DNA from: Candidatus Hermodarchaeum yapensis | GTDB taxonomy: Archaea > Asgardarchaeota > Hermodarchaeia > Hermodarchaeales > Hermodarchaeaceae | Direction: 5' to 3' | DNA: 27,165 bases | Assembly: GCA_016840405.1 (NCBI GenBank) | Contig: JAEOSK010000037.1 | Location: forward strand, 1-27,165 | Part shown: positions 1-15,053 of the stretch, piece after piece | Position numbering within the stretch: the stretch's first letter is position 1 | How the letters are laid out: the number at the start of each line of letters is the position of its first letter | Program-made: the position numbers and the translations under genes | The notes under the pieces: generated by a model | Told to the model about the DNA's origin: nothing | Seen by the model: only the letters and a program-made list of their open reading frames with translations | Database searches by the model: none

Positions 1-840
1 GCCATTGACCTCAAATATATCCAAGTCCTCATGGACTTCCGTGAACCTCCCAAAGAAGGCGTCACCGTCGGTTTCGTCTCAGGAGGAGTCCGCAACGAAG
101 AACAAGTCGAACTCCTCCACAAAATGCGCGAACGTTCAAAAATCCTTGTCGCCTTCGGAGCCTGCTCTGCCTTCGGTGGTATACCCGGGCTCGCCAACCT
201 TCACACAAAAGACGAACTCTTGCAAGAAGTCTACATCGATACAGTAAGCACGGTCAACCCAAAAGGTGTGATTCCCCACAAAGTCGTTCCCCCGCTTCTT
301 GAAGAAGTTCACCCTATCAGCGACTTTGTCAAAGTTGACTATGTTCTTCCAGGCTGCCCGCCACCACCCAAACTCATCGCTGAACTCGTCACCTGTCTCC
401 TCGAAGGCAAGGAATTCCGCCTCGAACCCAAAACCGTCTGCGACCAATGTCCTCTCATCAAAGATGAAAAAAGCGTCACCAACTTCATCCGTTGGGGTAC
501 TAAGAAAATCGACCCCGAACGCTGCCTCCTTGAACAAGGCTTCCAATGCCTCGGTCCCGTCACTCAAGGGGGCTGTGAAGCCCGCTGCCCAACCGCCCTT
601 GCACCTTGCCGAGGCTGCTTTGGACCTACCGAAAATGTCCATGACCAGGCCGCTAAAATGATAGGCGCCATCGGTTCCGTTGTCGTCCAAGACCCTACCA
701 AAGCCCCTGCACCTGAACAAATCGTGAAGGAAATTCCCGACCTCATCGGCACATACCTCCGATTCAGTTTAGCCGCATCTACCTTCAAAAAAGCGCTTCA
801 CACAAACGTTGTAAAAACGAAAAAGGGTGTAAAAGCATGA
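1..840 (+). CDS. mvhG: [NiFe]-hydrogenase small subunit (F420-non-reducing, MvhG-like), 5'-truncated by window edge
   Basis: Frame is open from base 1 (AIDLKYIQVLMD...). Motifs AFGACSAFGGIPGLAN, LPGCPPP, CDQC, CLLEQGFQCLGPVTQGGCEARCP and PCRGCFGP. The stop overlaps the mvhA start (ATGA). Confidence 0.9.
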   Translation, partial: AIDLKYIQVLMDFREPPKEGVTVGFVSGGVRNEEQVELLHKMRERSKILVAFGACSAFGGIPGLANLHTKDELLQEVYIDTVSTVNPKGVIPHKVVPPLLEEVHPISDFVKVDYVLPGCPPPPKLIAELVTCLLEGKEFRLEPKTVCDQCPLIKDEKSVTNFIRWGTKKIDPERCLLEQGFQCLGPVTQGGCEARCPTALAPCRGCFGPTENVHDQAAKMIGAIGSVVVQDPTKAPAPEQIVKEIPDLIGTYLRFSLAASTFKKALHTNVVKTKKGVKA

Positions 841-2261
841 GTCAAAAAGGAAAAACTATTAAAATCGCTCCCGTCTCCCGCGTCGAGGGACACGGAGCCG
901 TTACCATTCAACTCGACCAACAAGGCAACGTCGCCGATGCCCACTTCCACGTTATGGACGTACGCGGCTTCGAGATGTTTATGCAAAACCGTCCCGTAGA
1001 AGAAGCCCAACGCATCGCCACTCGCATGTGCGGCATCTGCCCCGTCAGCCACCACCTCGCCTCCGCCCACGCCGCAGACGCTTTATACGGTGTCGATCCT
1101 CCACGGACCGCCAAAATGCTCCGTGAACTCATGCACCACGGACAAATGATCCACTCCCATACTCTCCATTTCTTCTATCTCGCCGCACCTGACCTCCTTC
1201 TACCTAATACAGGTCCCGAAGAACGCCATGTTGTCACTCTTCTCAAAAAAAATCCCGACCTCGTCGGTAAAATCATCCGCCTGCGCCAAGTCGGCCAAAA
1301 CCTCATCGAAGCCACTGGCGGGCGTGCCATCCACCCCGTCACAGCACAACCCGGCGGCATCTCCCAACCACTCAGCGAAGAAAAACGTGACGACCTCCTG
1401 AAACAAGTCAACGAAGCCCAATCCCTCGCCACCGAACTCCTCCCCGTCGTCCGGCCTCTCCTCGACAAAGTCGAACTTCTCGACGAACTCCAAACCGGCT
1501 ACCTCGGTCTCGTCACTCCCAAAGGCGAACTCGAAGTCTACCAAGGCAATCTTCGCATGATCGACTCCACCGGCAAAAAACTCGCTGAATTTCCCGTCAA
1601 AGACTATCTCAAATACATCGGTGAACACGTCACTGACTACTCCTACCTCAAATTCCCCTTCTACCGCCCCTGGGGCTGGCCCAAAGGCATCTACCGCGTC
1701 GGACCCCTCGGCCGCATCAACGTCGCCGACGACATGAGCACCCCCCTCGCCCGCGAAGAATACACCACCATCAAAGCCAAATTCGACAAACCCTGGAACC
1801 ACACCTTCCTCTACCACTGGGCCCGCCTCACCGAAATCCTCAACTCCGTCGAAAAAGCCCACCAACTCCTCACCGACTCCCACATCACCGACACCGACGT
1901 CACCCGCGAATTCACCATCAAAGGCGGCCAAGGCATCGGCGTCATCGAAGCCCCCCGCGGCACCCTCATCCACCACTACACCGCCAACCCCGACGGCATC
2001 CTCACCAAAGTCAACCTCATAGTCAGCACCGTCGGCAACAACGGCGGCATGGACCAAGGCGTCAAAAACATGGCCCAACGCCACATCAAACACGGCAAAA
2101 TCAACCAACAAATCGAGAACAGCATCGAAATGGTCGTGAGGGCTTATGATCCGTGTCTTTCTTGTGCAGTTCACGCTGTAAATGGACATATGGCAATGCG
2201 TGTTACAGTGAAGAATCACTTAGGTGAAACATCCCAAGTTATTCAAAATTTCGAGGAGTAA
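837..2261 (+). CDS. mvhA: [NiFe]-hydrogenase large subunit (MvhA-like, group 3c type)
   Basis: SRVEGHG N-terminus, L1 motif RMCGICPVSH, EAPRGTLIHHY, L2 motif DPCLSCAVH followed by a 28-aa C-terminal extension. Confidence 0.93.
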   Translation: MSQKGKTIKIAPVSRVEGHGAVTIQLDQQGNVADAHFHVMDVRGFEMFMQNRPVEEAQRIATRMCGICPVSHHLASAHAADALYGVDPPRTAKMLRELMHHGQMIHSHTLHFFYLAAPDLLLPNTGPEERHVVTLLKKNPDLVGKIIRLRQVGQNLIEATGGRAIHPVTAQPGGISQPLSEEKRDDLLKQVNEAQSLATELLPVVRPLLDKVELLDELQTGYLGLVTPKGELEVYQGNLRMIDSTGKKLAEFPVKDYLKYIGEHVTDYSYLKFPFYRPWGWPKGIYRVGPLGRINVADDMSTPLAREEYTTIKAKFDKPWNHTFLYHWARLTEILNSVEKAHQLLTDSHITDTDVTREFTIKGGQGIGVIEAPRGTLIHHYTANPDGILTKVNLIVSTVGNNGGMDQGVKNMAQRHIKHGKINQQIENSIEMVVRAYDPCLSCAVHAVNGHMAMRVTVKNHLGETSQVIQNFEE

Positions 2262-2298
2262 TTGGTTAGTGGCTGGTTCGTGTTGCGAGCCAGTCCAA

Positions 2299-3114
2299 TT
2301 ATTGGTCAGTTTGAGCCAATTGTGATTGTTGAAGAAGTAATGAATATTGGTTGAGCTTCGAATCACCGTGAATCAACGATTGAAAGTTTGAAATCACTGT
2401 GTGGTTGATTTCTTTTATGTTGGTTTTTCGTAGTTTCGCAATGTGTGCAATTATGGGTTGTAGTTTTGTGTAGGGCATTTGTCGTGGGGGTGGTCCTGGA
2501 CCGTCAGTTTCTGTGAGCAACAGGTCTTGGGGAACTTCTTGGGCAATTGTTTGGATGCGTTTCCAATGCGGTATGGTGGTCTCCCATTGGGGAAGAACTG
2601 ATTGGCTGACAGTGATATAGAAACCGCGATCAACTACTTTGGCTAATAATTCGATGGGCCCCTCATAACCATGCATTATCACGCGAGTAATTCCGTATGC
2701 ATCGAGCAGGGTGATGGTCTCTTCATCAGCTCCCTTAGTGTGTAGGTTAACAATTAGATTGTGGGTTTTCGCTTTGTTTAAGAAGAATTCGAATAGTTGC
2801 CGTTGCACAGGATATTGAGAGGTGTCTTTAATGAAGAAGTGATCTAATCCAATCTCCCCTAACATCAGACAATTGATAATTAAATCGGTGAACTGATCGA
2901 GCTGGTTTACATACTCTGCTGCTCGGGATGGATGAATGCCAAATGCGGGAATTATGTAAGGTGACCGTTTTGCAATTTCCAGCGTTTTCTGATAGGCTGA
3001 CGGTTCACCGGACACCGAGACTACCAGTATTGGATGCACATTTAATTCGGCTAAGGCTGATTCTAAATCATCTTCATAAAAACTCCAATGACAGTGTGCA
3101 TCCAGACTTACCAA
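2299..3114 (-). CDS. tatD: TatD-family metal-dependent DNase/hydrolase
   Basis: DAHCH, FGIHP, GEIGLD, NLHT, MHG and LTETDGP motifs. Start placed at TTG 3114 after an AGGTG SD rather than the ORF-track 3180. Confidence 0.88.
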   Translation of the reverse strand: MVSLDAHCHWSFYEDDLESALAELNVHPILVVSVSGEPSAYQKTLEIAKRSPYIIPAFGIHPSRAAEYVNQLDQFTDLIINCLMLGEIGLDHFFIKDTSQYPVQRQLFEFFLNKAKTHNLIVNLHTKGADEETITLLDAYGITRVIMHGYEGPIELLAKVVDRGFYITVSQSVLPQWETTIPHWKRIQTIAQEVPQDLLLTETDGPGPPPRQMPYTKLQPIIAHIAKLRKTNIKEINHTVISNFQSLIHGDSKLNQYSLLLQQSQLAQTDQ

Positions 3115-3243
3115 GTCAACACCTGATATGAAAAAAGAATATTGAGCTATAAATAGCAAGAATAGAAACTCATTCACCATTCAATTTAATACCCTTTATA
3201 AGAGAATCCTTCCAAAGTAATGAGCACGGGTGTGGTGACTACT

Positions 3244-3387
3244 ATGACAGTTTTTTGCAATGATTATCGCACCCTATCGTCTTTTCGTTTAAGGCATTCG
3301 TTATCTTCAGAATGTCCCACTAAAAATGCTGAAGTGAATTCTGCTATTGAAGCTTATACCCACAGTTATCGAACGAAGGCTTCCTAG
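3244..3387 (+). other. Possible 47-aa small ORF or 5' stub of a gene divergent from tatD
   Basis: CTTTATAAG TATA-like box ~3194-3202, GGTGA SD ~3234, ATG 3244, MTVFCNDYRTLSS...RTKAS*. No recognisable family. Confidence 0.25.
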
Positions 3388-3402
3388 GTTTGAAAGTCGG
3401 CT

Positions 3403-3513
3403 TGCCTCTAGTGTGCTTTGCACGCTATTAGCGAATATATGGCGATGCGGGTTAAGGTGTTCAATCATCTTGGTGAAGTTATTCAGGTGATCCAGAACTT
3501 TGAAGATCAATAG
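3403..3513 (+). pseudogene. Diverged orphan copy of mvhA 3' end (copy 2)
   Basis: Translates CL*CALHAISEYMAMRVKVFNHLGEVIQVIQNFEDQ* versus mvhA CLSCAVHAVNGHMAMRVTVKNHLGETSQVIQNFEE*. Hand count ~70/108 nt and 24/35 aa identical. Confidence 0.92.
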
Positions 3514-3615
3514 ATTGGTTTTTGTTCTAGGCGGAGAGTCAGTTTTCTCTGGGATGTCGTTAGAGTTGGTTGGCATATTCATTTAAGATGGGCTTCGTAG
3601 TAGATTGTGGGCTAG

Positions 3616-4116
3616 GTGGCGGTTGTGCAGGTTGAGTTGGTTGCGTATGCGTCGATGGTTGTTGCTTCAATTGGTTTAGTGGGGGCGGTGATTTATTACA
3701 TCAATGATCACCGGAATCAAGCCCGGATGCGGAAAACGGATCTGATTATGCGGTTGTATGCAACGTTCATGTCAAAGGAATTCCAGGAAGCCGATGTCAA
3801 AGTCATCATGCTTGATGTCAAAGATTATGCGGAGTATCAAAACAAGTATGGTCCGTATCCCAGTGAGCACCCAATGCATATTGCGTTCCGTTCGGTTGCC
3901 GCGTTTTTCGAAGCTGTGGGAATATTGTTAAAGAAAGGCCTCATCGAGATTGATCTTGTCTATGAAATTTTTTTTGTAAAACAACGTTGGGAGAAACTCT
4001 GGCCCATAATCCGCGATTTGCGCAAAGAGTTTGACTTTCCCGGATATATGGACAAATTCGAATATCTCTATCATGAAACAGAAAAATACGGACGCAACTT
4101 AGTGGTGAACGGTTAA
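3616..4116 (+). CDS. Membrane-anchored hypothetical protein, DUF4760-like
   Basis: N-terminal TM helix, then RKTDLIMRLY...FFEAVGILLKKGLIEIDLVYE, a pattern typical of DUF4760-like proteins. Confidence 0.7.
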   Translation: MAVVQVELVAYASMVVASIGLVGAVIYYINDHRNQARMRKTDLIMRLYATFMSKEFQEADVKVIMLDVKDYAEYQNKYGPYPSEHPMHIAFRSVAAFFEAVGILLKKGLIEIDLVYEIFFVKQRWEKLWPIIRDLRKEFDFPGYMDKFEYLYHETEKYGRNLVVNG

Positions 4117-4214
4117 TCTGCTGTGCATGCAGTAACGGGCATATGGCAATGTGTGTCAAGGTGTTGAATCATTTGGGTGAGACGACGCAAGTGATTCAGA
4201 ATTTTGAGGGTTGA
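4117..4214 (+). pseudogene. Diverged orphan copy of mvhA 3' end (copy 3)
   Basis: SAVHAV[-1 frameshift]GHMAMCVKVLNHLGETTQVIQNFEG*. Hand count ~73/99 nt identical to 2163-2261. Confidence 0.93.
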
Positions 4215-4219
4215 TGGGA

Positions 4220-4927
4220 TTATGCGACGGGTCCCATGAGCCAAATCCATGCAGCGAAGAGGATGTGTTCGGTTTCGTCGATGATGATTTGTTGGCATTC
4301 AAGTTGCGAGCCCGCACATAGGGGGCCGCAATAGTAGGTGAAAGAAAGTTGCATGTCGATGAGGTATACGTTGGTGTAATTGAATGACTGCTCCTGATTG
4401 AAATCTTCGTAATGGGTGTCATTCCAGAATCCGCCCAGCCAGTAATAGATAGGCCAATCAGGGAGATTGATGGGAAAGAGAATTGATTCGTTGGCTTTGA
4501 TGAGGAGGGGGTTCTGTTCTGGATAGTATTCCCACGCATCGATGTTCACGGTGAGATTGGCATACCAATTTGCACTGGCTGTGTAATTATACCGGAAATA
4601 ACCACAATTTGCATAGGGATCGAATTCGTATGCCGTGATATTTAGGGCGTCACGCCGTGTTTGAGTGATGAATCCTGAGTGTTCAAGATAACTAGTGTTT
4701 GCGGGGATCTGGGTGTAGTTGAAGGTTTCAGCCTGGTGTAGGGCGTTTGCTTCCTCTGGCGTATTAAAGATGCGGTGTTCAAAGTAAGTGAATTCCGCAG
4801 GATAAAATCCACAATTACGCCCAAACCCCAGGTAAATAACAAACCATCCTAAACCGATAATGAGAATGAGGGTTGGGACTATAACCCAAATCCAGGCTCT
4901 TGTCCTTTTCTTCATTTCCATTCCCAA
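4220..4927 (-). CDS. Membrane-anchored extracellular hypothetical protein
   Basis: Basic N-terminus plus TM helix, several N-x-S/T sequons, YYCGPLCAG motif near the C-terminus. Confidence 0.75.
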   Translation of the reverse strand: MGMEMKKRTRAWIWVIVPTLILIIGLGWFVIYLGFGRNCGFYPAEFTYFEHRIFNTPEEANALHQAETFNYTQIPANTSYLEHSGFITQTRRDALNITAYEFDPYANCGYFRYNYTASANWYANLTVNIDAWEYYPEQNPLLIKANESILFPINLPDWPIYYWLGGFWNDTHYEDFNQEQSFNYTNVYLIDMQLSFTYYCGPLCAGSQLECQQIIIDETEHILFAAWIWLMGPVA

Positions 4928-4986
4928 TTAACATCCAACTTCGAATTGAATATTAAGCGTTTCTATAGAGACTGTTATACGGAGCA

Positions 4987-5024
4987 TTTCTTCTTACGCT
5001 GTGCATGCCGTTTACGGGCATAGG
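4987..5024 (+). pseudogene. Short orphan copy of mvhA 3' end (copy 4)
   Basis: tct tac gct gtg cat gcc gtt tac ggg cat = SYAVHAVYGH versus SCAVHAVNGH. Closely matches copy 3 (gctgtgcatgc.gt..acgggcata). Confidence 0.75.
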
Positions 5025-5026
5025 TA

Positions 5027-5683
5027 TCAAGTTCTGAGTTTTTCCCATTGGGCTGTGACTATAATGATTACTACAATTGTAACGACTGCAAATGGAAGTA
5101 AGATTGAAATTGGTAAGAGGTTGGGCATGATTATTGGGAATAGAGTGAGTATGGCTGGGCTCGTTGTATAGGTTACTGCAGGAGAGAATCCTGTCAGAGT
5201 TTGCACTTCGAACACTATCGTGAAGATGTATGTGATATTGGTGGGTGCTGGGTTCTCAACGCGGAGCCAGAAGTTGGTAACAAAAGTATGGTTCCAAAAT
5301 TCTCCTTCTTGTAGGCTTTCATCTAGGTAATCTTCTTGACCATGAGACCAGCCCTGTCCTTGCAGTTTTGCGGAATATTCAGTGATATGAACACTTGTCG
5401 CATTATGAGGTGATGTTTGATTCAAACTGATGACGTGAACCTGTAAAGAAGAAAAATACGAGGTATTCATGACAATGTTAGGTTCACCCTGGGCAGTAAT
5501 TTCTAATGTTGCTCCATATTCCGTCACGGTGTCGTTAATCAACCATGGAGTTGCCGTCGTCGTCTTGTTCAAGCAGGTTGCAAGTAGAAAAAGGATGAGT
5601 ATAGCAGCTGATCTTATTGCGTAATGTATCCATCTAGATTGATTGTGATATTTTTTGTGTTGCATTGCTACAGGCCTATGCAA
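5027..5683 (-). CDS. Secreted/membrane-anchored hypothetical protein
   Basis: Signal-like hydrophobic N-terminal segment, Thr/Asn-rich body with sequons, C-terminal TM helix. Start codon uncertain. Confidence 0.7.
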   Translation of the reverse strand: MHRPVAMQHKKYHNQSRWIHYAIRSAAILILFLLATCLNKTTTATPWLINDTVTEYGATLEITAQGEPNIVMNTSYFSSLQVHVISLNQTSPHNATSVHITEYSAKLQGQGWSHGQEDYLDESLQEGEFWNHTFVTNFWLRVENPAPTNITYIFTIVFEVQTLTGFSPAVTYTTSPAILTLFPIIMPNLLPISILLPFAVVTIVVIIIVTAQWEKLRT

Positions 5684-5930
5684 TCAATTTTATGATGGAA
5701 GATGTTGAAGCTACCTGTTGCTTCCCTCCACCACGTTTACTAAGAAACTTCGCAATTTTAAATGTAGAGAATACGTACTGGTTCAGCAACGTTTACCGTA
5801 TTTGATTCAAAATATCAGGCAAATGGTTTTGTGGATTCTTGTTCTCAAAGTTTTTTAGACTGAAACTCTACGAACCTCATAAGACCCATATGGGTTGACA
5901 CTATTCTCAAATCAGTTGATGTGAAAAACT

Positions 5931-6203
5931 ATGTCAAACGAAACTGCAGGCACTTTAGCCTTGGTTGGTGGAATTCTCAACCTTATTGGTGGAATCATCA
6001 TTGCCATTATCTTCCTTTTCACGATCATTCTCATTCCTCTAGGAATTCTGGCATTGCTTCTCGGTATCCTGCCAATTATGTGGCGTGATGACCCCGGCTC
6101 TCATCGGGTCGGGTTAATCATCATTGGAGTGTTTACCCTGTTTTCCATTGGTGGTATTCTCATCCTCATTGCAGGGATCATTGCCGAAGAAGAAAAAGCC
6201 TAA
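5931..6203 (+). CDS. Small multi-pass membrane protein
   Basis: 90 aa, about three hydrophobic Gly/Ile/Leu-rich helices. Confidence 0.75.
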   Translation: MSNETAGTLALVGGILNLIGGIIIAIIFLFTIILIPLGILALLLGILPIMWRDDPGSHRVGLIIIGVFTLFSIGGILILIAGIIAEEEKA

Positions 6204-6242
6204 TCCACCACGAAACTAGCGCAATATCTAGTAACTCTACGC

Positions 6243-6290
6243 ACTCCTCCTCTCCAAATTCAAAAGTGGATTGCTGAGTAGAGGAGGAGT
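6243..6290. terminator. Inverted repeat between convergent genes (possible bidirectional terminator)
   Basis: ACTCCTCCTCT (6243-6253) and AGAGGAGGAGT (6280-6290) form a perfect 11-bp stem. Confidence 0.55.
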
Positions 6291-6332
6291 CTTATTTCTC
6301 ATATAATTGATGATTCAACGTACTTCGTGTAT

Positions 6333-6962
6333 CTACTCTTCAAGTTTGGTTTTGACCCGTTTTTTTCGTTGATAGGTTTGATACCGTTTGAGGAAAAAGG
6401 CACTAATTGCGACAATGAAGAGGGCGTTCAAGATGACAAGGATGCCTAAATTATGGAAGTCTGTGCCGATGAGGTTGCCGTGAACGATTACGAAAAAGAG
6501 TACAATGTACATGAGCCAGTGGAAGTATCGCCAGTACCTGCTAATCATTGTTCGGAGGAGACCAGCGATTGTGGCGATGTAGAGGATGTACAATGCTGGG
6601 CGACCCGCAAGTTCCCAAAAAATCTGCCAAGAATCAAACCGGGGGATGAAGACAGCTATGTTGCTCTGTGAGATAGCAAAAAAGACTGGATGTAACGTGA
6701 CAAAGATAATCCCAAAAACGGCTAGAATGTGATGGACCCGGATGAAAGGGCGACCAAAGGCTTGCGTAATTTCCTTCAGAAAAGGTGTCATCGTCGTTGC
6801 AAAGGCCAAAGCCACAAATCCGTACAATGCACAGAGACGGACTGCTAAACCGAGTGGATCAGAATAATAGGTGAGAGGCGCAAGAACCGTAACCAGAATA
6901 AAAACTAGGAACACGACAAGAAGGAAAATCCAACCTTCACGTTTAATTCCCATATTATTCAC
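6333..6962 (-). CDS. Ferric reductase-like transmembrane domain protein (cytochrome b type)
   Basis: About six TM helices with paired His (RVHH...LHP; WRYFHWLMY...VHG). Confidence 0.8.
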   Translation of the reverse strand: MNNMGIKREGWIFLLVVFLVFILVTVLAPLTYYSDPLGLAVRLCALYGFVALAFATTMTPFLKEITQAFGRPFIRVHHILAVFGIIFVTLHPVFFAISQSNIAVFIPRFDSWQIFWELAGRPALYILYIATIAGLLRTMISRYWRYFHWLMYIVLFFVIVHGNLIGTDFHNLGILVILNALFIVAISAFFLKRYQTYQRKKRVKTKLEE

Positions 6963-7097
6963 CTTATCTACAAAGGGTTCCTAGGTTCTATAAAGGCGTT
7001 AATTAGAACTGAAAATATCTTTGAAGAAAGACCATTAGGCTATTTATAGTGCGGTTCCTCTTTGCTTCTCTTGAAGGGTTTCGAAAGAGGTTAAATT

Positions 7098-7622
7098 ATG
7101 AAACGGAAGTCCGTTCTGGTCCTAGCCACAATAGGCTTAATGTTCCTCTTACTCCCCACTGTTAAGGCGAATGGCTACTGGTTTCCCATGGAACTCAACC
7201 AAGTCCTGAACCGACCGATTCTCGGGCTTCAGCATTACCACATCACCAAAACCACGTCCCATGACCGAGAAAAATTCGAATTTAACTGGACCTCAGGAGT
7301 CATCGCCATCAATTTCTACATATTCACCGAAACCAACTATCTCAACTGGACCCAAGCTCAACCATCCACACCCCAAATCGCAGTCGAAGATGTCACCAAT
7401 GATGCGACCATTTTTGATACGTCAGGAACCAACCGCACGTGGGTCTTTGTCTGGCATAACCCCACCATCACCTCAACACAACTGATCGGAATGTACGAAC
7501 GATACCGGTGGATAGAAGTGGAAAGTCAAATCCCTGGATTTCCCTGGGTTGCCATTCTGCTAGGAACTTTGTGCGCCATCACCATTGGTCTCTTGGTAAG
7601 AAGGAGAACACGATTCGAGTAA
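7098..7622 (+). CDS. Surface protein with PGF-CTERM/Loki-CTERM-like sorting signal
   Basis: Signal peptide ending VKA; C-terminus IPGFP + TM helix + RRRTR. Confidence 0.8.
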   Translation: MKRKSVLVLATIGLMFLLLPTVKANGYWFPMELNQVLNRPILGLQHYHITKTTSHDREKFEFNWTSGVIAINFYIFTETNYLNWTQAQPSTPQIAVEDVTNDATIFDTSGTNRTWVFVWHNPTITSTQLIGMYERYRWIEVESQIPGFPWVAILLGTLCAITIGLLVRRRTRFE

Positions 7623-7639
7623 ATTGAAAGCGTGACTGT

Positions 7640-10048
7640 TCATCTCTTCTCCTGCTTCACCGGTTTGCGGAGATAGCTTGCAGAGGAAGAAGGGTGTCGT
7701 CGAAAGTTCGCTCGAATAAAAACAACTACAACTAGCACAATGACTAAAATCACAACAGCTTCTAGAAGGAACAGTAGACGATCTGCTGATTGTAATACCA
7801 AGACGCTAATTGGAGTTATTAGTGGGTGAAGATCACGGTTACCTGCAGATCCTGAAATATTGTAGGGAATATCGCCAAAACCGTAAAAAAATATATTATC
7901 GCCTGAGTAATTTGTCCAATAATTACAATCAATGATATTCGCTCCGGGTGTTTGGAATTCAGGTCCATTATCACATGCATCATGGCTAGCATTGCACAGG
8001 AAGATATTCCAATCCACGATATTGTACTGGCAACTACCATGGAGATAGATGCCATAACCGTCGTTGTTAGAGAAGCTGTTGCGTGTAAAATGATTCCAGT
8101 GAGAATCACGAACGAAAATTCCATGTCTTTCATTATTTCCTAGACGATTGTCCATAAAGAGGGAGTGGTTCGTACAATATACAAGAAGACCATATGAACA
8201 GTCTACGAGGGTTTGCCTCCGCACCGTAATTCCTCGGCAATTGAATAAAATTATTTGACCAGCATTCGACCGAACCTGCATATTTACTCGGTTTTTAAGA
8301 AAAACTAGTGGTTGTCCATTCACTGTGTTATCGCTAATATCTACGGGTTCTATCCATTCACGACCATGATATTGTATGTAAAGACCGCAGCCGATCATGG
8401 TGTTATTATTGATTACGATATCTCGATACCCATAGATGTAAATCCCAATTGTATTGTTAACGCAGAGATTATGAGAAATTGGTGTGGTGTTACTCTGGAG
8501 AAAGATGCCGTACGAATTGTTGGTACAGGTGTTCTCCACTACATCATTATCTTGACCTACAATCTCAATTCCAGCCCTATTGCCAGTGCAATGGTTCCAC
8601 CTTACAGTATTCTCATCCCCGTAAATCAAAATACCTAATCCGGGTTCTGGCCACCCCCACCAAAGCTCCTGATTGTGGTTGCAGGTATTGTTGAGGAGTT
8701 GGTTGCCAGAGGCAGTTTCTAAGAGAATGCCATATCTATTGTGGTTGCAGGTATTATTGAGAAGTTCATTGTCGTATGACTCAAAGAGGCGAATGCCACA
8801 ACCCCACCAACTGTTGTTGTTGCACTGATTACCAATTAAACCGGTGTCCCAAGTTTGATCGAGAGTAATTCCTGAAAGGGCGTTATTCGTACAAAGGTTG
8901 TTGTTGACTGTGATATACTCGCAATTTTGAACTCGTATACCGTTCACAGAGTGGTCTGTACAGGTATTATTGAAAACCCGCGATCGACTGGTAAAACAAA
9001 GGAATATACCGATTGAAGCGTCAGTGATATTCTGGTCTTTGACAGTGACAATACTACAGTTGAGAAGGATGACCTGCCCTGCTCCAAGAGGCACCGTGAA
9101 ATCCACACGCCCTACCCATAAAAGCAATGGTCGTTCATTGACGGTATTCCCAATAATCTGTGCATTCACATCTACGGTACTTCCTACGCCCCCCATTGTG
9201 GGAGTTCCTGACATCTCTTCCCAGGAGCCAAAAAAGAAACCACAATTCACTAGCGAGTTATTAACGAGAATATTATCATTGACCGGGTATATCTCGCATC
9301 CAAAATATCGACTATTTTCAATGGTGTTGTTGATAATCTCTGATGAGAACGAATCGAATATCCAAAGCCCGAAATCTGCGTTGAAGCAGGTATTGTTGAT
9401 TATCATAATGGAATTGGAATCACGTACAGAAATTCCTTTGTCAGTATTGATGCAAGTGTTGTTGAATAATTCAATTGATTCCGATAAAACCAGTCTTACA
9501 CCATAATCATAAGTAACACACGTTGTGTTGGCAATGAAACCATTGGCTACATTTTCTAGATAGATGCCGATTTGACTTCTTTCCATCCAACAATCTGCGA
9601 TGACGAAATGAACGCGTGTATTCATGATTAGGATACAGTCTGGTCCTGCTGCTATGTTCAAATCCCTAATAACGTATGGATGTTCTTGTGTGCCATTACC
9701 AGGCCATCCTTGATTAGCAAAATCTGCGTCTGATCTTATTTCAATAGGGGAATGAGGCTGCAGCGGAGCTGGGCTTCTAATGATTTTGCTATAGGTGGTT
9801 GTTTGTTTTGTTCGCGACCAATCACCGAATCGATTCTGCTCTTCAAACGAGGACATGAATGGTTGATGACTTAGGGATACATTCTGGGGCTTTGCAGTAT
9901 GCCCCTCGTATCCGGTCTTCACTCGAGAACTATGCAACCTATGAGTATCAGCGCCAAATTCATGGCTTGGGCTGATCACTCTGCACAGAGTAGTTAGTAT
10001 GAGGAGTATTACGAATAGGACGAAACCGTTCCTCCAAGTTCGTGCCAT
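7640..10048 (-). CDS. Right-handed parallel beta-helix (NosD/CASH) surface protein
   Basis: HSPIEIRSDADF..GWPGNGTQEHPYVI entry motif, many NNTC..N..GI.L repeats, signal peptide and C-terminal TM anchor. Confidence 0.88.
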   Translation of the reverse strand: MARTWRNGFVLFVILLILTTLCRVISPSHEFGADTHRLHSSRVKTGYEGHTAKPQNVSLSHQPFMSSFEEQNRFGDWSRTKQTTTYSKIIRSPAPLQPHSPIEIRSDADFANQGWPGNGTQEHPYVIRDLNIAAGPDCILIMNTRVHFVIADCWMERSQIGIYLENVANGFIANTTCVTYDYGVRLVLSESIELFNNTCINTDKGISVRDSNSIMIINNTCFNADFGLWIFDSFSSEIINNTIENSRYFGCEIYPVNDNILVNNSLVNCGFFFGSWEEMSGTPTMGGVGSTVDVNAQIIGNTVNERPLLLWVGRVDFTVPLGAGQVILLNCSIVTVKDQNITDASIGIFLCFTSRSRVFNNTCTDHSVNGIRVQNCEYITVNNNLCTNNALSGITLDQTWDTGLIGNQCNNNSWWGCGIRLFESYDNELLNNTCNHNRYGILLETASGNQLLNNTCNHNQELWWGWPEPGLGILIYGDENTVRWNHCTGNRAGIEIVGQDNDVVENTCTNNSYGIFLQSNTTPISHNLCVNNTIGIYIYGYRDIVINNNTMIGCGLYIQYHGREWIEPVDISDNTVNGQPLVFLKNRVNMQVRSNAGQIILFNCRGITVRRQTLVDCSYGLLVYCTNHSLFMDNRLGNNERHGIFVRDSHWNHFTRNSFSNNDGYGIYLHGSCQYNIVDWNIFLCNASHDACDNGPEFQTPGANIIDCNYWTNYSGDNIFFYGFGDIPYNISGSAGNRDLHPLITPISVLVLQSADRLLFLLEAVVILVIVLVVVVFIRANFRRHPSSSASYLRKPVKQEKR

Positions 10049-10197
10049 ATAATGGCCCCCAGAATTATGGAAAACGATGTTTGTATGTATCTGATACGGT
10101 TTCTTATTAATCTGCTAATTTTAGGATGCTAACTCGTGGAGGAGCAGATTCGTCTGTTTCTTTCTTCTCTTTATATCATTGACAGTGCGGTGGATGG

Positions 10198-10644
10198 TTA
10201 CCAAACGAGTGTTTTGTCCTTATGCTTCTCATAGCAATCGGAGCAGATACGCACATAGATATTTTCTTCGGGGTTCTCAAGCTTCTGTCCAATTGTCCCA
10301 GTATCATCAATGGATAATTTCTTTCCACAGAGATTACAGCAGTAGATGGCTTCAATTTGAAATTTGATAACCCGTGATGGGCAATTATAGATTCTGACAT
10401 TTCGATTGGGACTTCCAAGTTCCCGCATATCGCCCATTACTCGCAGTGAATGAAGGATGGGATACATGCCGACAAAACTTTCAGGGCAAAAACCTTCCGG
10501 GGTCTTCCAATCAAATTCAAACGTCTCTCCCTTCTTATGAGCTGCACGACAATTCCCCTCCTCAATAACAGTCACCCGATATTGTACTGGTTCCCTCCAG
10601 AACTCTCCAACTTTCAAAACCTTATCGTTCTTGATCATGATCAA
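10198..10644 (-). CDS. TIGR04076-like Cys-rich protein with C-terminal zinc ribbon
   Basis: GNCRAAHKKGETFEF..TPEGFCPES..YP and NCP motifs; C-terminal CNLC...CSDC. Confidence 0.72.
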   Translation of the reverse strand: MIMIKNDKVLKVGEFWREPVQYRVTVIEEGNCRAAHKKGETFEFDWKTPEGFCPESFVGMYPILHSLRVMGDMRELGSPNRNVRIYNCPSRVIKFQIEAIYCCNLCGKKLSIDDTGTIGQKLENPEENIYVRICSDCYEKHKDKTLVW

Positions 10645-10739
10645 TTGTCCCCTTTGTACAGGAAAAAATTCCCGCGGTATTTTAAATTCGATGAATACGG
10701 TATAAGATTGTTTTCAAACGGGAGCAAACGTGTCGAAGT

Positions 10740-11303
10740 TTAGTCTTTATCGTCCTTCTCTTGGGGAATACGGGTTCCTAGCTGGTAGTAGTTGAAATCG
10801 CCTCCCGTCGCCCATAGAATTGGGTGGACTTTTTGCATGTCAAGTTTACCTTCACTGAGACATTCGGCGTTGACATAGGATTTGACGACACGTCCAATGA
10901 TACCATCATTTTGTTCATAATCGAGAATTTCCGCTACTTCACATTCAATATTAATGGGGGCCTGGTGAATCATCGGGGCGGTTTCTAGTTCCCCATAAAA
11001 AATCTCAAAGAGTGAACTCTTATCAACATCTCGTCCAGACTTACTCCCGCAAATATCGACCTCTACGAGGAGCTCCTCTGAGGGGACGTTCACACTAAAG
11101 GTGCGGTGCTCGTGAATACCAATGCGGGTGTGTCGTTTCTTATACAGGCTGAAGAATAGGTAGCGCCCAAAATCGAAGGGGCACATGTACCCAATTACGA
11201 GAAAGTTAGGTACGTCATTCACCAAAGCACCTACCAACGCGATGGGTAAGGGGCTAAACATGTTTTTCTCAAACTCGATCTTACCTAGACTCTGATTGTT
11301 CAA
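10740..11303 (-). CDS. Flavin reductase-like (flavoredoxin) family protein
   Basis: PLPIALVGALVNDVPNF, FSVNVPS, CGSKSGRDVDKS, APMIHQAPINIECEV. Start placed at TTG 11303 after a GAGGTG SD. Confidence 0.85.
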   Translation of the reverse strand: MNNQSLGKIEFEKNMFSPLPIALVGALVNDVPNFLVIGYMCPFDFGRYLFFSLYKKRHTRIGIHEHRTFSVNVPSEELLVEVDICGSKSGRDVDKSSLFEIFYGELETAPMIHQAPINIECEVAEILDYEQNDGIIGRVVKSYVNAECLSEGKLDMQKVHPILWATGGDFNYYQLGTRIPQEKDDKD

Positions 11304-11383
11304 TAACAGACACCTCTTTTCTTCCAGCAGGTTACGACCTAGTGAGCTGCGGAGTTCAACAGAGCATCTTAAATGCGTAATTT

Positions 11384-12136
11384 TCACTTGGGTTTATGTG
11401 CTTCAATTTTAGCACTTGTAGCAATATTGAACGGTGATTCGTTGACAATTCGGACATTAACGAATCCTGCATCCCGCATGAGCTGAAGATACTCTTCTTT
11501 AAGGATAGCTCCGCCCAAACAACCGGTGTAGGAAGCCACTTCATCGCGAACCTCTTTTGGCAGGGACGCTTCTAGCACGATGTCTGAAATTAGCATTCGC
11601 CCTCCTGGACGGAGCACCCGGAATGATTCAGTAAATACTTTTGACTTGTCTGGTGCCAGGTTAATGACGCAATTGCTGATAATGACATCAACGGATTCAT
11701 CATCAACTGGAAGGGCCTCAATATCGCCCTGTCGAAACTCAACGTTTTCTACGCCCATTTTTTCCGCATTGAGTTTGGCTTTTTCAGTCATTTCGGTTGT
11801 CATGTCAACCCCTATTACGCGGCCTTTGGGTCCAACTTCGCGGGCTGCCATGAAGGCGTCAAGCCCGGCGCCACTCCCTAAATCTAAAACAACATCGCCT
11901 TCATGAAGGCTCGCTAAAGCAACGGGATTTCCACATCCTGCAAACGATTCAGTTACTGAGTCGGGGAGATCCGTGACCTCGTAACCCAATTTCTCTGCTA
12001 GGGTATCTTGAGAACAACTTGAGGTGGGTCCACAACAGGATGTTGTGCGTTGGGCAACTTTGGTGTAGGCTTTTCTCACTTCTTCTTTAATTTCTTCATC
12101 GGTCATTTCGGTGATTTTTTTGGTTTCCGTCATCAT
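11384..12136 (-). CDS. arsM: Arsenite S-adenosylmethionine methyltransferase
   Basis: SCCG, FAGCGNP, VLDLGSGAGLD, IISNCVINLAPDK and GCLGGA motifs. Confidence 0.9.
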   Translation of the reverse strand: MMTETKKITEMTDEEIKEEVRKAYTKVAQRTTSCCGPTSSCSQDTLAEKLGYEVTDLPDSVTESFAGCGNPVALASLHEGDVVLDLGSGAGLDAFMAAREVGPKGRVIGVDMTTEMTEKAKLNAEKMGVENVEFRQGDIEALPVDDESVDVIISNCVINLAPDKSKVFTESFRVLRPGGRMLISDIVLEASLPKEVRDEVASYTGCLGGAILKEEYLQLMRDAGFVNVRIVNESPFNIATSAKIEAHKPK

Positions 12137-12148
12137 TTGCCACCAACG

Positions 12149-12216
12149 TATTGGTCGCCCAATAAGTTATGGGTAGTTAGACGACAGGCACATTTAAATG
12201 TATCGGACACCCAATA
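12149..12216. promoter_or_regulatory. Divergent arsM/padR promoter with two palindromic operators
   Basis: TATTGGTCGCCCAATA (12149-12164), palindromic CATTTAAATG TATA box (12191-12200), TATCGGACACCCAATA (12201-12216). Confidence 0.75.
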
Positions 12217-12222
12217 AATGCT

Positions 12223-12567
12223 ATGCCTGAAGAAAAAGAAATCGATGAATGCTGCCCCCCCGACTGCTGCGACATGCGCGGCATGCTATCTTTCCAAATC
12301 CTCTGGGAGCTTGGTAAAAAACCCATGAACGGTCAAGAACTTGCCGAACAAATCGGTCTCCGTCGGGGTAGCAAACCCACACCTGGCACAATCTATCCTG
12401 CCCTAAAAGAACTTAGTAACAAGAATCTGATCTCTGGTATGAGGGAGGGGCGACAAGTGATCTACACTCTCACCGATGAGGGGCGAACGGGGCTCGAGGT
12501 GGCCACACAATACTTCTATCGAGTATTCAATGAAATCATCGAAGCTGGAAAAACCTCGCTCCAATAA
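12223..12567 (+). CDS. PadR-family transcriptional regulator with N-terminal CCPPDCC motif
   Basis: RGMLSFQILWEL..KPMNGQEL, PTPGTIYPALKEL, YTLTDEGR winged-helix signatures. Confidence 0.88.
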   Translation: MPEEKEIDECCPPDCCDMRGMLSFQILWELGKKPMNGQELAEQIGLRRGSKPTPGTIYPALKELSNKNLISGMREGRQVIYTLTDEGRTGLEVATQYFYRVFNEIIEAGKTSLQ

Positions 12568-12631
12568 ATGGTATCTCAACGTTACGGGCTAGTTCTCACG
12601 TTTTAATTCTATTAACTGTAGCCGAAGAAGA

Positions 12632-12692
12632 TATTGGGTATCCAATATATTTAAATATTGGACGTACAATAAAAGATATCGGACATCCAATA
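12632..12692 (+). promoter_or_regulatory. Promoter with three palindromic operators upstream of sORF-nitroreductase
   Basis: TATTGGGTATCCAATA (12632-12647), TATTTAAATA box (12648-12657), TATTGGACGTACAATA (12656-12671), TATCGGACATCCAATA (12677-12692). Confidence 0.78.
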
Positions 12693-12710
12693 AATAGGAG
12701 GTCGATAAAA

Positions 12711-12812
12711 TTGGCGAATAAGAAATGTAATGCAGGCAATGTGTGTTCACCGGATTACAAATCAAATAGCAGTGTAGACTTTGCACGGGCTATGCTACTC
12801 CGAATTAGGTAA
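12711..12812 (+). CDS. Putative 33-aa small protein (MANKKCNAGNVCSPDYKSNSSVDFARAMLLRIR)
   Basis: GGAGGT SD (12697-12702) 8 nt before TTG, directly downstream of the operator-flanked promoter. Confidence 0.5.
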   Translation: MANKKCNAGNVCSPDYKSNSSVDFARAMLLRIR

Positions 12813-12846
12813 CTGTAACATTCTGAATTTCAAGGAATGATGAAAA

Positions 12847-13464
12847 ATGACAAAAGTAGTTGAAACTCAGTCAAAAACACCAGACTCTCCCAAAAAAGGG
12901 CTTTTAGATGTGACAGAACCGTTTTTCAAAGTTATTCAAAAACGCCGAAGCATCAGGCGTTACAAACCCTATGACATTCCTGATGCCGACCTAGAGAAGA
13001 TTCTTAACGCAGCCCGGCTAGCCCCGTCAACAAATAATAGCCAATCGTGGCGCTTCATTGTCATTAAGGACCCTGAAGTTAAAGCCTTGCTTGGACAGCC
13101 TTCTCCACAACGCTTCATAGCCAATGCAAATGCCATCATCGTAGTTCTCGGAATGCAACAGACATCCTGCTGTCCTGGAAATCAGGCTCGCTGGCATGTC
13201 CAAGATCCGATGATTGCGGCTGAACATCTTGTTCTTGCCGCAACGGCTCTAGGTTATGGATCCTGTTGGATTGCCACATATGAGTCCCGGCCACCTGAAT
13301 TTATCCAGGAGGTAAAAACTAAGCTTGAAATCCCCGAGAACGCTGACATTGTGGTTCTTGTTGCCCTTGGTGTTCCGGATGAAGCTCCTGCTCCCCGGTC
13401 TAGGAAACCCTTGGGGGAAATTGCGTTTCGCGAAAAATTTGGTCAATCTTGGTACGTACTTTAG
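12847..13464 (+). CDS. Nitroreductase family protein
   Basis: RRSIRRYK, AARLAPSTNNSQSWRF, LAATALGYGSCWI. Confidence 0.9.
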   Translation: MTKVVETQSKTPDSPKKGLLDVTEPFFKVIQKRRSIRRYKPYDIPDADLEKILNAARLAPSTNNSQSWRFIVIKDPEVKALLGQPSPQRFIANANAIIVVLGMQQTSCCPGNQARWHVQDPMIAAEHLVLAATALGYGSCWIATYESRPPEFIQEVKTKLEIPENADIVVLVALGVPDEAPAPRSRKPLGEIAFREKFGQSWYVL

Positions 13465-13588: not shown

Positions 13589-14296
13589 ATGGACCGAAAG
13601 TGGTTAGGGCTCCTCACTTTTCCCCTCATTCTAGGCTTGATTCTTGTTTCACCATTTTTAATAGGGTTTTTTGCACCTTCTCATGCACCTGAGGGTGGAG
13701 TCATTGGAGAGGAGCTTGCTAGCTTCATGAATGAAAAAGAGGCGGATATCTTTGCCGTTCGAATTCTAAGATATTGTATCTCAGAGATTTTATGCGGCAA
13801 TTTATTTTGTGGAGATCTGGTGTACCCGGACCTAAGGGACGCGCTTTTTATTCCCTTATCCACCGGAGCTTGGAATGCTACAGCCATCTTTGTAAATGAG
13901 ACTCTCGAATCCAATGATGAGCTATTCTACAAGGAGGCATTCCAGATTACGGTAAGCGAGGTTGAAAACATCTACAATGCTATTTACGCTGGGCTGTCGA
14001 ATACAATTGCATCGAGTGATTCCGTTGTCGATGTTATGTTCTTTATTGGGTTTGGGTTAGACCTCCTATATTCAGATGGAACCTGGGTTCAACTGTTCAC
14101 AATCCCAAGTGCGAAAGGACATATCATGTTCCTGAACAGCACCTATACAGGTACACCTAATCCAGTGAATCCTTTTGATCTGAGTTTCCTTCAACGAGAC
14201 GAGAACCGATTGAATGGTGTCCTACTAGAACCCGGAACTGCACTGGATGAACTAGTTACTGTGATGAGTGCAGTGTTTGTGAATCACCTGAACTAG
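13589..14296 (+). CDS. Membrane-anchored hypothetical protein, paralog A
   Basis: N-terminal TM; clearly homologous over its full length to 14370-15053. Confidence 0.8.
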   Translation: MDRKWLGLLTFPLILGLILVSPFLIGFFAPSHAPEGGVIGEELASFMNEKEADIFAVRILRYCISEILCGNLFCGDLVYPDLRDALFIPLSTGAWNATAIFVNETLESNDELFYKEAFQITVSEVENIYNAIYAGLSNTIASSDSVVDVMFFIGFGLDLLYSDGTWVQLFTIPSAKGHIMFLNSTYTGTPNPVNPFDLSFLQRDENRLNGVLLEPGTALDELVTVMSAVFVNHLN

Positions 14297-14369: not shown

Positions 14370-15053
14370 TTGGTGGGCATTATGAACCGGAAATGGTTAG
14401 GCCTTCTCGTTATACCCATAGTATTGGGCTTGATTCTCGTTTCTCCCTTTATACTAGGCTTCTTCGCCCCTCCATCTCCAACGGATGGGGGAACCACAGG
14501 AGACTCGCTTTCGACTTTCATGCACGGAAAAGAATCTGATATCCTAGCTGTCCAAATTATGGGTAATAGCTCGGATATCGTCTATCCTGAATTGATGAAC
14601 GCTCTCTTCATCCCCTTACTTGGGGGTTCTTGGAATGTGTCTGCTAGTTTCCTCAACGACACTGATCCATACAACATCACTTTTTACAATGAATCATTTA
14701 TAGCTACTCTCACCGATGTTGAAGATATCAATAATGCCATCTACGATGGACTGGAAAACACCACACAATCTCTGGATTCCATTTCAGACCTATTCTATTC
14801 TGTCGGCTTTGGCTTAGACATTCTATATGCAGATAACACTTGGATACAGCTGTTTACCATTCAAAGCCCCACCGGACATATCATGTTCCTGAATGGCACC
14901 TATACTGGAACACCTAGCCCAACGAATCCCTTCAACCCGTCTATCATTCAACGTGACGAGAACTGGATGAATGGCATTCTGTTAGAACCCGGAACCGCAC
15001 TGGATGAACTCGTAGCAACCATGAATGCAGTGTTCGTAAACCATCTCGGCTAG
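14370..15053 (+). CDS. Membrane-anchored hypothetical protein, paralog B
   Basis: Shares RKWLGLL, GHIMFLN.TYTGTP, QRDEN and LLEPGTALDELV with paralog A. The start may be the ATG at 14382. Confidence 0.8.
   Translation: MVGIMNRKWLGLLVIPIVLGLILVSPFILGFFAPPSPTDGGTTGDSLSTFMHGKESDILAVQIMGNSSDIVYPELMNALFIPLLGGSWNVSASFLNDTDPYNITFYNESFIATLTDVEDINNAIYDGLENTTQSLDSISDLFYSVGFGLDILYADNTWIQLFTIQSPTGHIMFLNGTYTGTPSPTNPFNPSIIQRDENWMNGILLEPGTALDELVATMNAVFVNHLG

Follow-up and report, generated by a model that had tools for sequence, protein, structure and literature searches.

The architecture closest to the one considered here is that of the orphan rhs-CT/rhsI and cdiA-CT/cdiI arrays of Enterobacteria (PMC3967940). 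In these arrays, up to eleven modules follow the main gene in tandem, each made of a fragment resembling a displaced 3' end of that gene and of a neighboring gene. The orphan ends keep some conserved coding sequence that provides homology for recombination with the main gene, and an end that is orphaned in one strain is the working one in a different strain (PMC3967940). We analyzed a 27,165-nucleotide stretch of DNA from the archaeon Candidatus Hermodarchaeum yapensis (the window, which is the entire contig JAEOSK010000037.1), in which the last ~35 codons of mvhA, the gene for the large subunit of an Mvh-type [NiFe] hydrogenase, recur behind that gene. As at rhs and cdiA, tandem displaced 3' fragments with adjacent genes, able to work elsewhere, are found at mvhA. 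In the enterobacterial systems, however, the displaced end is a variable, selected toxin and its neighbor is the immunity gene, whereas the mvhA end is conserved and apparently functionless, and its neighbors are unrelated genes. No toxin with cognate immunity was seen; the cargo includes TatD, DUF4760, membrane proteins, a GTPase and a peptidase. The mvhA array also differs in that its main gene encodes a core energy-metabolism enzyme and its host is an archaeon. On balance, we lean towards the view that the DNA behind mvhA is a gene-capture hot spot, where the mvhA end acts as a portable piece of homology and the repeated ends thereby anchor accretion and shuffling.

Three further types of system invite comparison. 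Integrons and the attC clusters that lack an integrase, among them archaeal examples (PMC9668308), likewise have co-oriented repeats of ~100 nt, mostly single-gene units of varied function and a variable order. At mvhA, no IntI-type integrase (PF00589) occurs in any ORF (open reading frame) of the window, and the folded palindrome of attC was absent from the seven copies folded. Integron cassettes are promoterless and co-oriented behind a common promoter, whereas about two-thirds of the first genes after an mvhA-end copy are convergent with that copy, and the repeat itself, a fragment of a pseudogene, has diverged in a codon-periodic way. The second type comprises integrative islands (tRNA islands, SGI1 in trmE, dusA/guaA islands) that target and restore the 3' end of a gene for a tRNA or a protein: every insertion brings a new end for that gene and displaces the old one downstream as a direct repeat, and accretion in tandem is known. 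Such islands encode a tyrosine integrase or rely on one, and their core is exact. The mvhA locus shares with them the direct repeats of the target's 3' end that flank the insert. Its units measure 0.3-2.6 kb, no integrase was found in those examined, and there is no exact core, as the left ends of the repeats spread over positions 226-249 of the alignment profile described below. Finally, homology-facilitated illegitimate recombination and Campbell-type integration are known from the Acinetobacter and Streptococcus transformation literature; there too a conserved anchor gene recruits foreign DNA, and a single crossover with a circle leaves the shared segment as two direct repeats. To our knowledge, such recombination has been known as laboratory events or single insertions, not as genus-wide stacks of up to ten gene-end remnants. 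Aloposons, giant-gene elements that target tRNA genes, were also considered and found to be unrelated.

Displaced copies of the mvhA end

The intact mvhA gene lies at 837..2261 on the plus strand (Pfam NiFeSe_Hases), with both metal-binding motifs present in its ORF. It is preceded by the small-subunit gene mvhG (1..840, plus strand; Pfam Oxidored_q6), which is cut by the contig start, and relatives show mvhD-mvhG-mvhA synteny. A preliminary description of this DNA, made from its letters alone, had claimed that the last ~35 mvhA codons recur downstream at two places and, partially, at a third, and a repeat search, tblastn and nhmmer together confirm this. The repeat search returned an 85-nt unit three times (2181-2265, 3430-3514 and 4134-4218), the latter two being 64% and 75% identical to the first. 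Using the last 60 MvhA residues as query, tblastn recovered both long orphan copies in the contig (3325/3403-3507, E 4e-12; 4119-4208, E 4e-9), and it hit nothing similar in the rest of the 2.7-Mb genome. The nhmmer profile was 345 nt long and built from full-length mvhA ends of 8 genomes, so that longer remnants would be detectable; R1, a sequence model of the copy, found no copy outside this contig in the genome.

The working copy runs from the P-C-L-S-C codons to the stop (2152..2261, plus strand; repeat search and nhmmer). Orphan copy 2 (3401..3513, plus strand; nhmmer match 3401-3506, E 6.5e-18 at profile positions 236-341, R1 82 bits) carries an in-frame TAG at 3409-3411. Orphan copy 3 (4113..4214, plus strand; nhmmer match 4117-4209, E 1.6e-17, R1 85 bits) stands directly after the stop of the DUF4760 gene and has a 1-nt deletion near 4134. 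Half copy 4 (4990..5024, plus strand) retains the left part only, ends near profile position 276 and gave a weak nhmmer match (4991-5022, E 0.023 within the window), while its expected frame reads S-Y-A-V-H-A-V-Y-G-H. The stop, the frameshift and the truncation that had been noted for the orphans were all recovered in this way. Copies 2 and 3 start at profile positions 236-247 of 345, which correspond to the P-C-L-S-C codons; the extension of copy 2 back to 3325 in the tblastn alignment was rejected because the nucleotide profile gives it no support.

To judge the assembly we relied on assembled public contigs (runs X1-X10). Contigs of X3, a 2017 sediment sample, span the whole stretch and bridge both the passage from tatD into copy 2 (2349-3468) and the region of copy 4 (4580-5942) with zero differences, and a contig of X7, a 2025 estuary sample, bridges mvhA into tatD (2005-2550). 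The assembly is sound, as contigs of other samples carry the same DNA across all three places. Two further X3 joints (3486/3613 and 3503/3437) have their short sides inside the repeats and were not used, and nothing was inferred from the parts of the stretch that have no contig cover in X8 and X10. That the array could be an artefact or a coincidence, made of misassembled mvhA strain variants or of chance similarity, might be argued from the fact that the genomes are metagenome bins and that many relatives have mvhA cut at contig ends. This account is barely credible: the copies differ by 20-35%, which rules out collapsed strain variants, the E-values run from 1e-17 to 1e-27, arrays are present in 12 independently assembled genomes, and the junctions are bridged by contigs from other samples.

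Variable cargo across the genus

As had been proposed from the letters, each mvhA end in the window is followed by a different, unrelated gene, and three of these four genes are convergent with the copy. Cargo 1 is a convergent gene for a TatD_DNase hydrolase (2299..3180, minus strand; Pfam TatD_DNase, E 1.5e-42). Cargo 2 is a co-directional DUF4760 gene (3616..4116, plus strand; Pfam DUF4760, E 1.6e-11) with about 82% nucleotide identity to its homologues in three species of the survey below (G011, G014 and G009). Cargo 3 (4220..4927, minus strand; family F18) and cargo 4 (5027..5683, minus strand; an ORF of family F35) are convergent genes for membrane proteins with hydrophobic N-termini and no Pfam family; the former is 38% identical in amino acids to a protein of G012 (C52, 512-1225), and a relative of the latter occurs in an array fragment of G004. 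The ends of the three convergent genes lie 37, about 5 and about 2 bp past the repeat. Between mvhA and the convergent tatD lies a terminator-like hairpin (2270..2296, no strand assigned), the 60 nt past the stop folding at -21.9 kcal/mol. This hairpin motif was found behind 6 of the 58 copies tested, and the versions of other species are related but have different stem bases.

The tatD gene at position 1 is unique to this species within the class, given that its best relative there is only 34% identical. In a wider protein collection its best matches reach 43-45% identity, and the few that have names bear Chloroflexi/Anaerolineae labels. The gene is of bacterial type and looks to have been acquired across domains; it is the newest cargo of the window. 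A 99%-identical TatD protein also exists, the genomic context of which is not on record.

We then surveyed 19 species genomes of the class, all of them metagenome bins. Of the 14 other species of the genus, 11 had 2-10 matches to model R1, one had a single match and two had none; in the last two this type of mvhA is absent. The four species of the sister genus had exactly one match each, with a different gene behind mvhA in each and no orphan. In total, about 50 orphans were found in 27 fetched loci, and within every locus they are co-oriented. Viral and JGI metagenome contigs, searched by pattern, yielded no copy. A nearest-neighbor analysis of the copies was star-like, and donors were not assigned. 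Across the class, a contig boundary very often cuts mvhA at or near its 3' end, and the array at mvhA explains why assemblies of the genus break there. Some copies are on contigs that carry no mvhA. In one genome (G010), two mvhA-end copies lie mid-contig, far from mvhA, beside an epimerase gene of family F34 (C33:17189-18307, L037), which suggests array pieces that were translocated or a large insertion.

The locus maps of these species show that the order and the neighbors of the cargo families change from species to species, and that some families stand directly behind an intact mvhA. The F18 homologue directly follows an intact mvhA in G012, whereas in G013 it follows an orphan. A block of flavin reductase, methyltransferase and nitroreductase genes (window 10740-13464) is directly behind the mvhA end in G001, where its F7-F4 part follows intact mvhA, and in G003, while it lies between copies in G012. 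The first gene behind mvhA is of family F29 in G010, G007 and G016 (the last from the sister genus) and of family F34 in G005. The preliminary description had named three observations that would speak against it, namely a fixed gene order among relatives, cargo never found behind an intact mvhA, and a misassembly; none of the three was made, and its expectation of variable cargo downstream of mvhA was borne out. Among the other cargo that recurs are genes for an M28 peptidase, an epimerase, a radical-SAM protein, an Arf/Roc-like GTPase bearing a zinc ribbon, and large proteins of no known family. The units measure 0.3-2.6 kb and mostly hold one gene, and no recombinase was found among ten scanned cargo proteins from the arrays of other species. 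The small GTPase, whose zinc ribbon is N-terminal (L026:3653-4816; G011, G013, G004 and G003), was always flanked by mvhA-end copies.

The locus shows recruitment and exchange of accessory genes in the archaeal group closest to eukaryotes. The recruited genes include bacterial-type enzymes and the Arf/Roc-like small GTPase, and no recognizable mobile-element machinery accompanies them. A conserved core gene serves as the landing pad, and the stacked gene-end remnants form a natural record of successive captures.

Origin of the orphan ends and their joining

Among the about 50 orphans, none extends further left than profile position ~224-226 (the A-Y-D-P-C codons). Left ends fall at 226-227 (4 copies), 234-236 (7), 238 (3), 240-241 (9) and 243-249 (4), with a tail of shorter copies reaching 285. 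On the right, copies end between the stop codon and about +60 nt, and most run to the stop; a subset shares ~60 nt more past it, including the hairpin also seen at window 2270-2296. The aligned copies have no motif conserved beyond the copy itself and do not share an exact boundary. No obvious 11-6-11 palindrome of the Xer/dif kind was seen in the copy consensus, the dif site of this genome itself not having been identified. The earlier observation that the orphans begin near the same place holds for the window (236-247), but across species the starts scatter over 226-249 without a single exact core. Such ragged ends fit one founder plus erosion and do not fit an exact core.

The divergence of the copies carries a clear coding signature. 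Column variability among the orphans was 0.366 at third codon positions versus 0.157 at the others, and 0 of 20,000 permutations were as extreme, while the shifted reading frames of the orphans showed no third-position pattern. Pairwise differences at codon positions 1, 2 and 3 were 0.31, 0.22 and 0.49 among orphans and 0.24, 0.13 and 0.54 among working ends, and the codon-periodic divergence was seen in both halves of the copy. In-frame stops were present in 13 of 54 orphans and frame-breaking deletions in 17 of 54. Since the divergence is biased to third positions, the orphans are former working mvhA ends, which diverged mostly while coding and have decayed little since. The codon periodicity also argues against a DNA site that was preserved for a recombinase.

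This last point bears on the possibility of a site-specific cassette system, in which circles of an mvhA-end mimic plus cargo would be inserted and excised at the DPCLSC region by a recombinase whose gene lies elsewhere (candidates being XerA, the other tyrosine recombinase or an unknown enzyme), akin to integron cassettes or end-restoring elements. The small size of the mostly single-gene units, the strict co-orientation of the copies, the clustering of left ends at 236-241 and the breaks of half copies near 262-281 all agree with such a system. We nevertheless regard it as unlikely. As had been stated before, the window holds no integrase or transposase: a Pfam scan found no integrase, transposase or recombinase domain in any window ORF of at least 90 aa, and none of the scanned cargo proteins is a recombinase. 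The whole genome has only two PF00589 genes, neither of them on this contig (C16 and C53). There is neither an outside motif nor an exact boundary, and both halves of the copy are codon-periodic, unlike a conserved binding site. When seven copies were folded as single-stranded DNA, Z-scores ranged from -2.05 to +1.44 with only one below -1, so that no fold was significant; an attC-like or hairpin site, suggested by a TGAATCA...TGATTCA palindrome in some copies, was rejected because it folds no better than shuffles. Moreover, R1 matched nothing else in the genome, and the orphan ends found behind other genes (see below) differ in length from those of mvhA.

Several features point instead to exchange between homologous sequences. 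Identity between the window and G010 is 90-96% over mvhG and the initial ~245 nt of mvhA (to ~1080) and only 60-70% beyond, with 97% amino acid identity for MvhG and 78% for MvhA; mvhA is thus a mosaic, with a recombination breakpoint inside the gene near ~1080. G010 and G013 share DNA of 94% identity that stops inside one copy, at profile position ~280, and starts inside another, at ~263-277. The window and G011 share the DUF4760 gene plus the left ~20 nt of the next copy, after which they diverge. Over 2005-2550, the X7 contig is identical to the window but for 7 synonymous changes, all of which lie within 2153-2174; this tract begins at the left edge of the repeat, resembles the consensus of the other copies and gives the impression that the working end underwent a short conversion or crossover with a further copy. 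Exchange points inside the copies were placed at ~258-262 (the X7 tract), ~264, ~276, ~280 and ~263-277, recent events being too few to give a firm distribution. Co-oriented repeats, varied exchange points and chimeric repeats, the hallmarks of homologous recombination, were all found.

The same left edges could also be read as the trace of a break. In that account, which corresponds to the fixed break site named in the preliminary description, a nuclease or fragile site would repeatedly cut mvhA at the DPCLSC codons, the left end would be repaired by copying the mvhA end of a relative together with its neighbor, and non-homologous joining would leave the right end as an orphan. Left ends within about 20 nt of one place, with a small scatter as from limited resection, would be expected from this, as would the varying left crossover points in mvhA, the origin of the orphans as former working ends and the X7 conversion tract that abuts the left edge of the repeat. 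We find this account quite unlikely, because no nuclease candidate was identified and because tatD, being of bacterial type and absent from relatives, was not the mvhA neighbor of a relative. In addition, in both G010 and G007 orphans lie behind an F29 gene that occupies position 1, which does not suit insertion at the working gene alone, and the sister genus has variable neighbors yet no orphans.

The sequence of events that we favor as the simplest, homology-anchored accretion and shuffling, would start with one or a few founding events in the ancestor of the genus, in which a foreign gene was placed behind mvhA and the last ~35 codons were duplicated, leaving a cargo gene between a working end and an orphan end. 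Ordinary homologous recombination could thereafter act on any pair of copies, whether both are in the same cell's DNA or one of them arrives on the DNA of a relative. Unequal crossover, or the loop-out and re-integration of circles of one end plus its cargo, would add, delete and reshuffle single-gene units, and the working end of a donor could move into the array, or an array end into the working gene, repeatedly. Because every copy can supply a compatible C-terminal tail, the working mvhA would stay intact throughout. The array, its spread in the genus, the coding-type divergence of the orphans, the shuffled cargo, the mosaic mvhA genes and the short recombination tract in the working copy are observed; the route of the first duplication and the joining by homologous recombination rather than by a dedicated enzyme are what we infer.

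This bears on how the array was first explained. The serial accretion of units of mvhA end plus cargo that had been put forward is largely upheld, and the array varies between species, but the integron-like machinery with a trans-acting integrase found no support. Of the options offered then, homology-driven recombination fits better than an integron-like enzyme in view of the ragged ends, the lack of a recombinase and the lack of a fold. The idea that insertion always takes place at the working mvhA had to be dropped: in G010 the ancestral neighbor F29 has kept position 1 and six orphans follow it, which shows that insertion is not confined to the working gene.

A number of observations weigh against recombination between repeated ends as the whole explanation. 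The copies are only 65-90% identical over ~105 nt and would be a poor substrate for homologous recombination unless the most similar pairs were involved. Left ends cluster, with 19 of about 46 at 236-241, and half copies break at 261-281 above expectation, which may mark a cut or crossover site, although several of these breaks are orthologous loci, so that the hot zone at 261-281 is not statistically firm. The orphans are also better preserved than neutral DNA as old as the 70-75% identical cargo would be, and this requires either frequent renewal or some selection. Homologous recombination alone does not account for the origin of new single-gene units, which are packed tightly against the copies, and the metagenome bins break at the arrays, so that array order could be read only within contigs. 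The low identity, clustered left ends, half-copy breaks, good preservation and tight units keep both the site-specific and the break-initiated explanations alive.

Orphan ends behind other genes and remaining features

It had been suggested that other core genes might be trailed by copies of their own 3' ends. A C-terminal peptide scan of the whole genome, which replaced a too-insensitive self-blastn, found single orphans of similar style behind metF, a gltD-like oxidoreductase gene and a tyrosine recombinase gene. The metF gene (MTHFR; G000:C42:121004-123209, L056 505-2710, where G000 is the genome of the window) is followed by a convergent gene of 144 aa and then by an open-frame orphan of its last 74 codons that is 68% identical; metF orphans were also present in G012:C55 and G018:C69. 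Behind the gltD-like NAD(P)H oxidoreductase gene (G000:C73:77199-86014, L055), an orphan of the last 74 codons, 74% identical, stands 7.1 kb downstream. For the second tyrosine recombinase gene (C53:4215-5186, minus strand; L057), the orphan comprises the last 41 codons and stands at 2991-3113, separated from the gene by one convergent gene. Single orphans of other lengths behind other genes favor a homology-based process of general reach over a single specific site, and the cases at metF and the other genes suggest a general route of gene gain in these genomes. The further-reaching notion that the copies are the sites of a dedicated Asgard capture system, which would lack an integron integrase, use a recombinase or nuclease encoded elsewhere to cut or exchange DNA at the DPCLSC region, move single-gene cassettes with a mimic of the gene end between species and employ other anchor genes too, seems doubtful to us.

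Two side observations concern these loci: the architecture at the tyrosine recombinase orphan on C53 matches that of mvhA, and Mtd-like, [NiFe] hydrogenase and HdrA/MvhD-fusion genes lie between the gltD-like gene and its orphan.

The mvhA gene also shows an unusual composition. Its body (837-2125) has an extreme bias to C-ending codons, with C3 of 0.49-0.87 upstream versus 0.11 in the last 35 codons, and a GC skew down to -0.43; the bias ends at ~2125, about 45 codons before the stop. The loss of C-ending bias in the last 35 codons was seen in every species, setting in earlier in G014, G016 and G010. We considered this switch as proof of a replaced mvhA end and rejected it, because the sister genus has the same switch without orphans; it is compatible with replaced ends but not diagnostic of them. 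Other C-rich patches occur in the genome (e.g. C30:64.5-66.5 kb and C76:73.5-75 kb), which we presume to be highly expressed genes.

A link between the mvhA copies and another set of repeats was also tried. Contig C58 of the same genome (G000:C58:4875-59285) carries ten co-oriented repeats ending in T[AT]TCGAAGAC over 55 kb, with no sequence relation to the mvhA copies. By eye, ~4 of the mvhA copies carry TCGAAGA exactly, and R1 found none on C58. We take the likeness between TTCGARGA of the mvhA end, which codes for F-E-D/E, and T[AT]TCGAAGAC to be a probable coincidence, and the link was rejected.

In the remainder of the variable region (5684..13464, no strand assigned), no further copy was detected at E < 1. 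Its genes are F19, F20, F2, a beta-helix protein gene and F11, followed by the block of F7 (flavin reductase), F4 (methyltransferase), PadR and F5 (nitroreductase). Just beyond it, 13589-14296 and 14370-15053 are tandem paralogues without a Pfam family, the C-termini of which are 74% identical, and homologues of this pair (family F3) adjoin array copies in G008, G012, G014 and G009.

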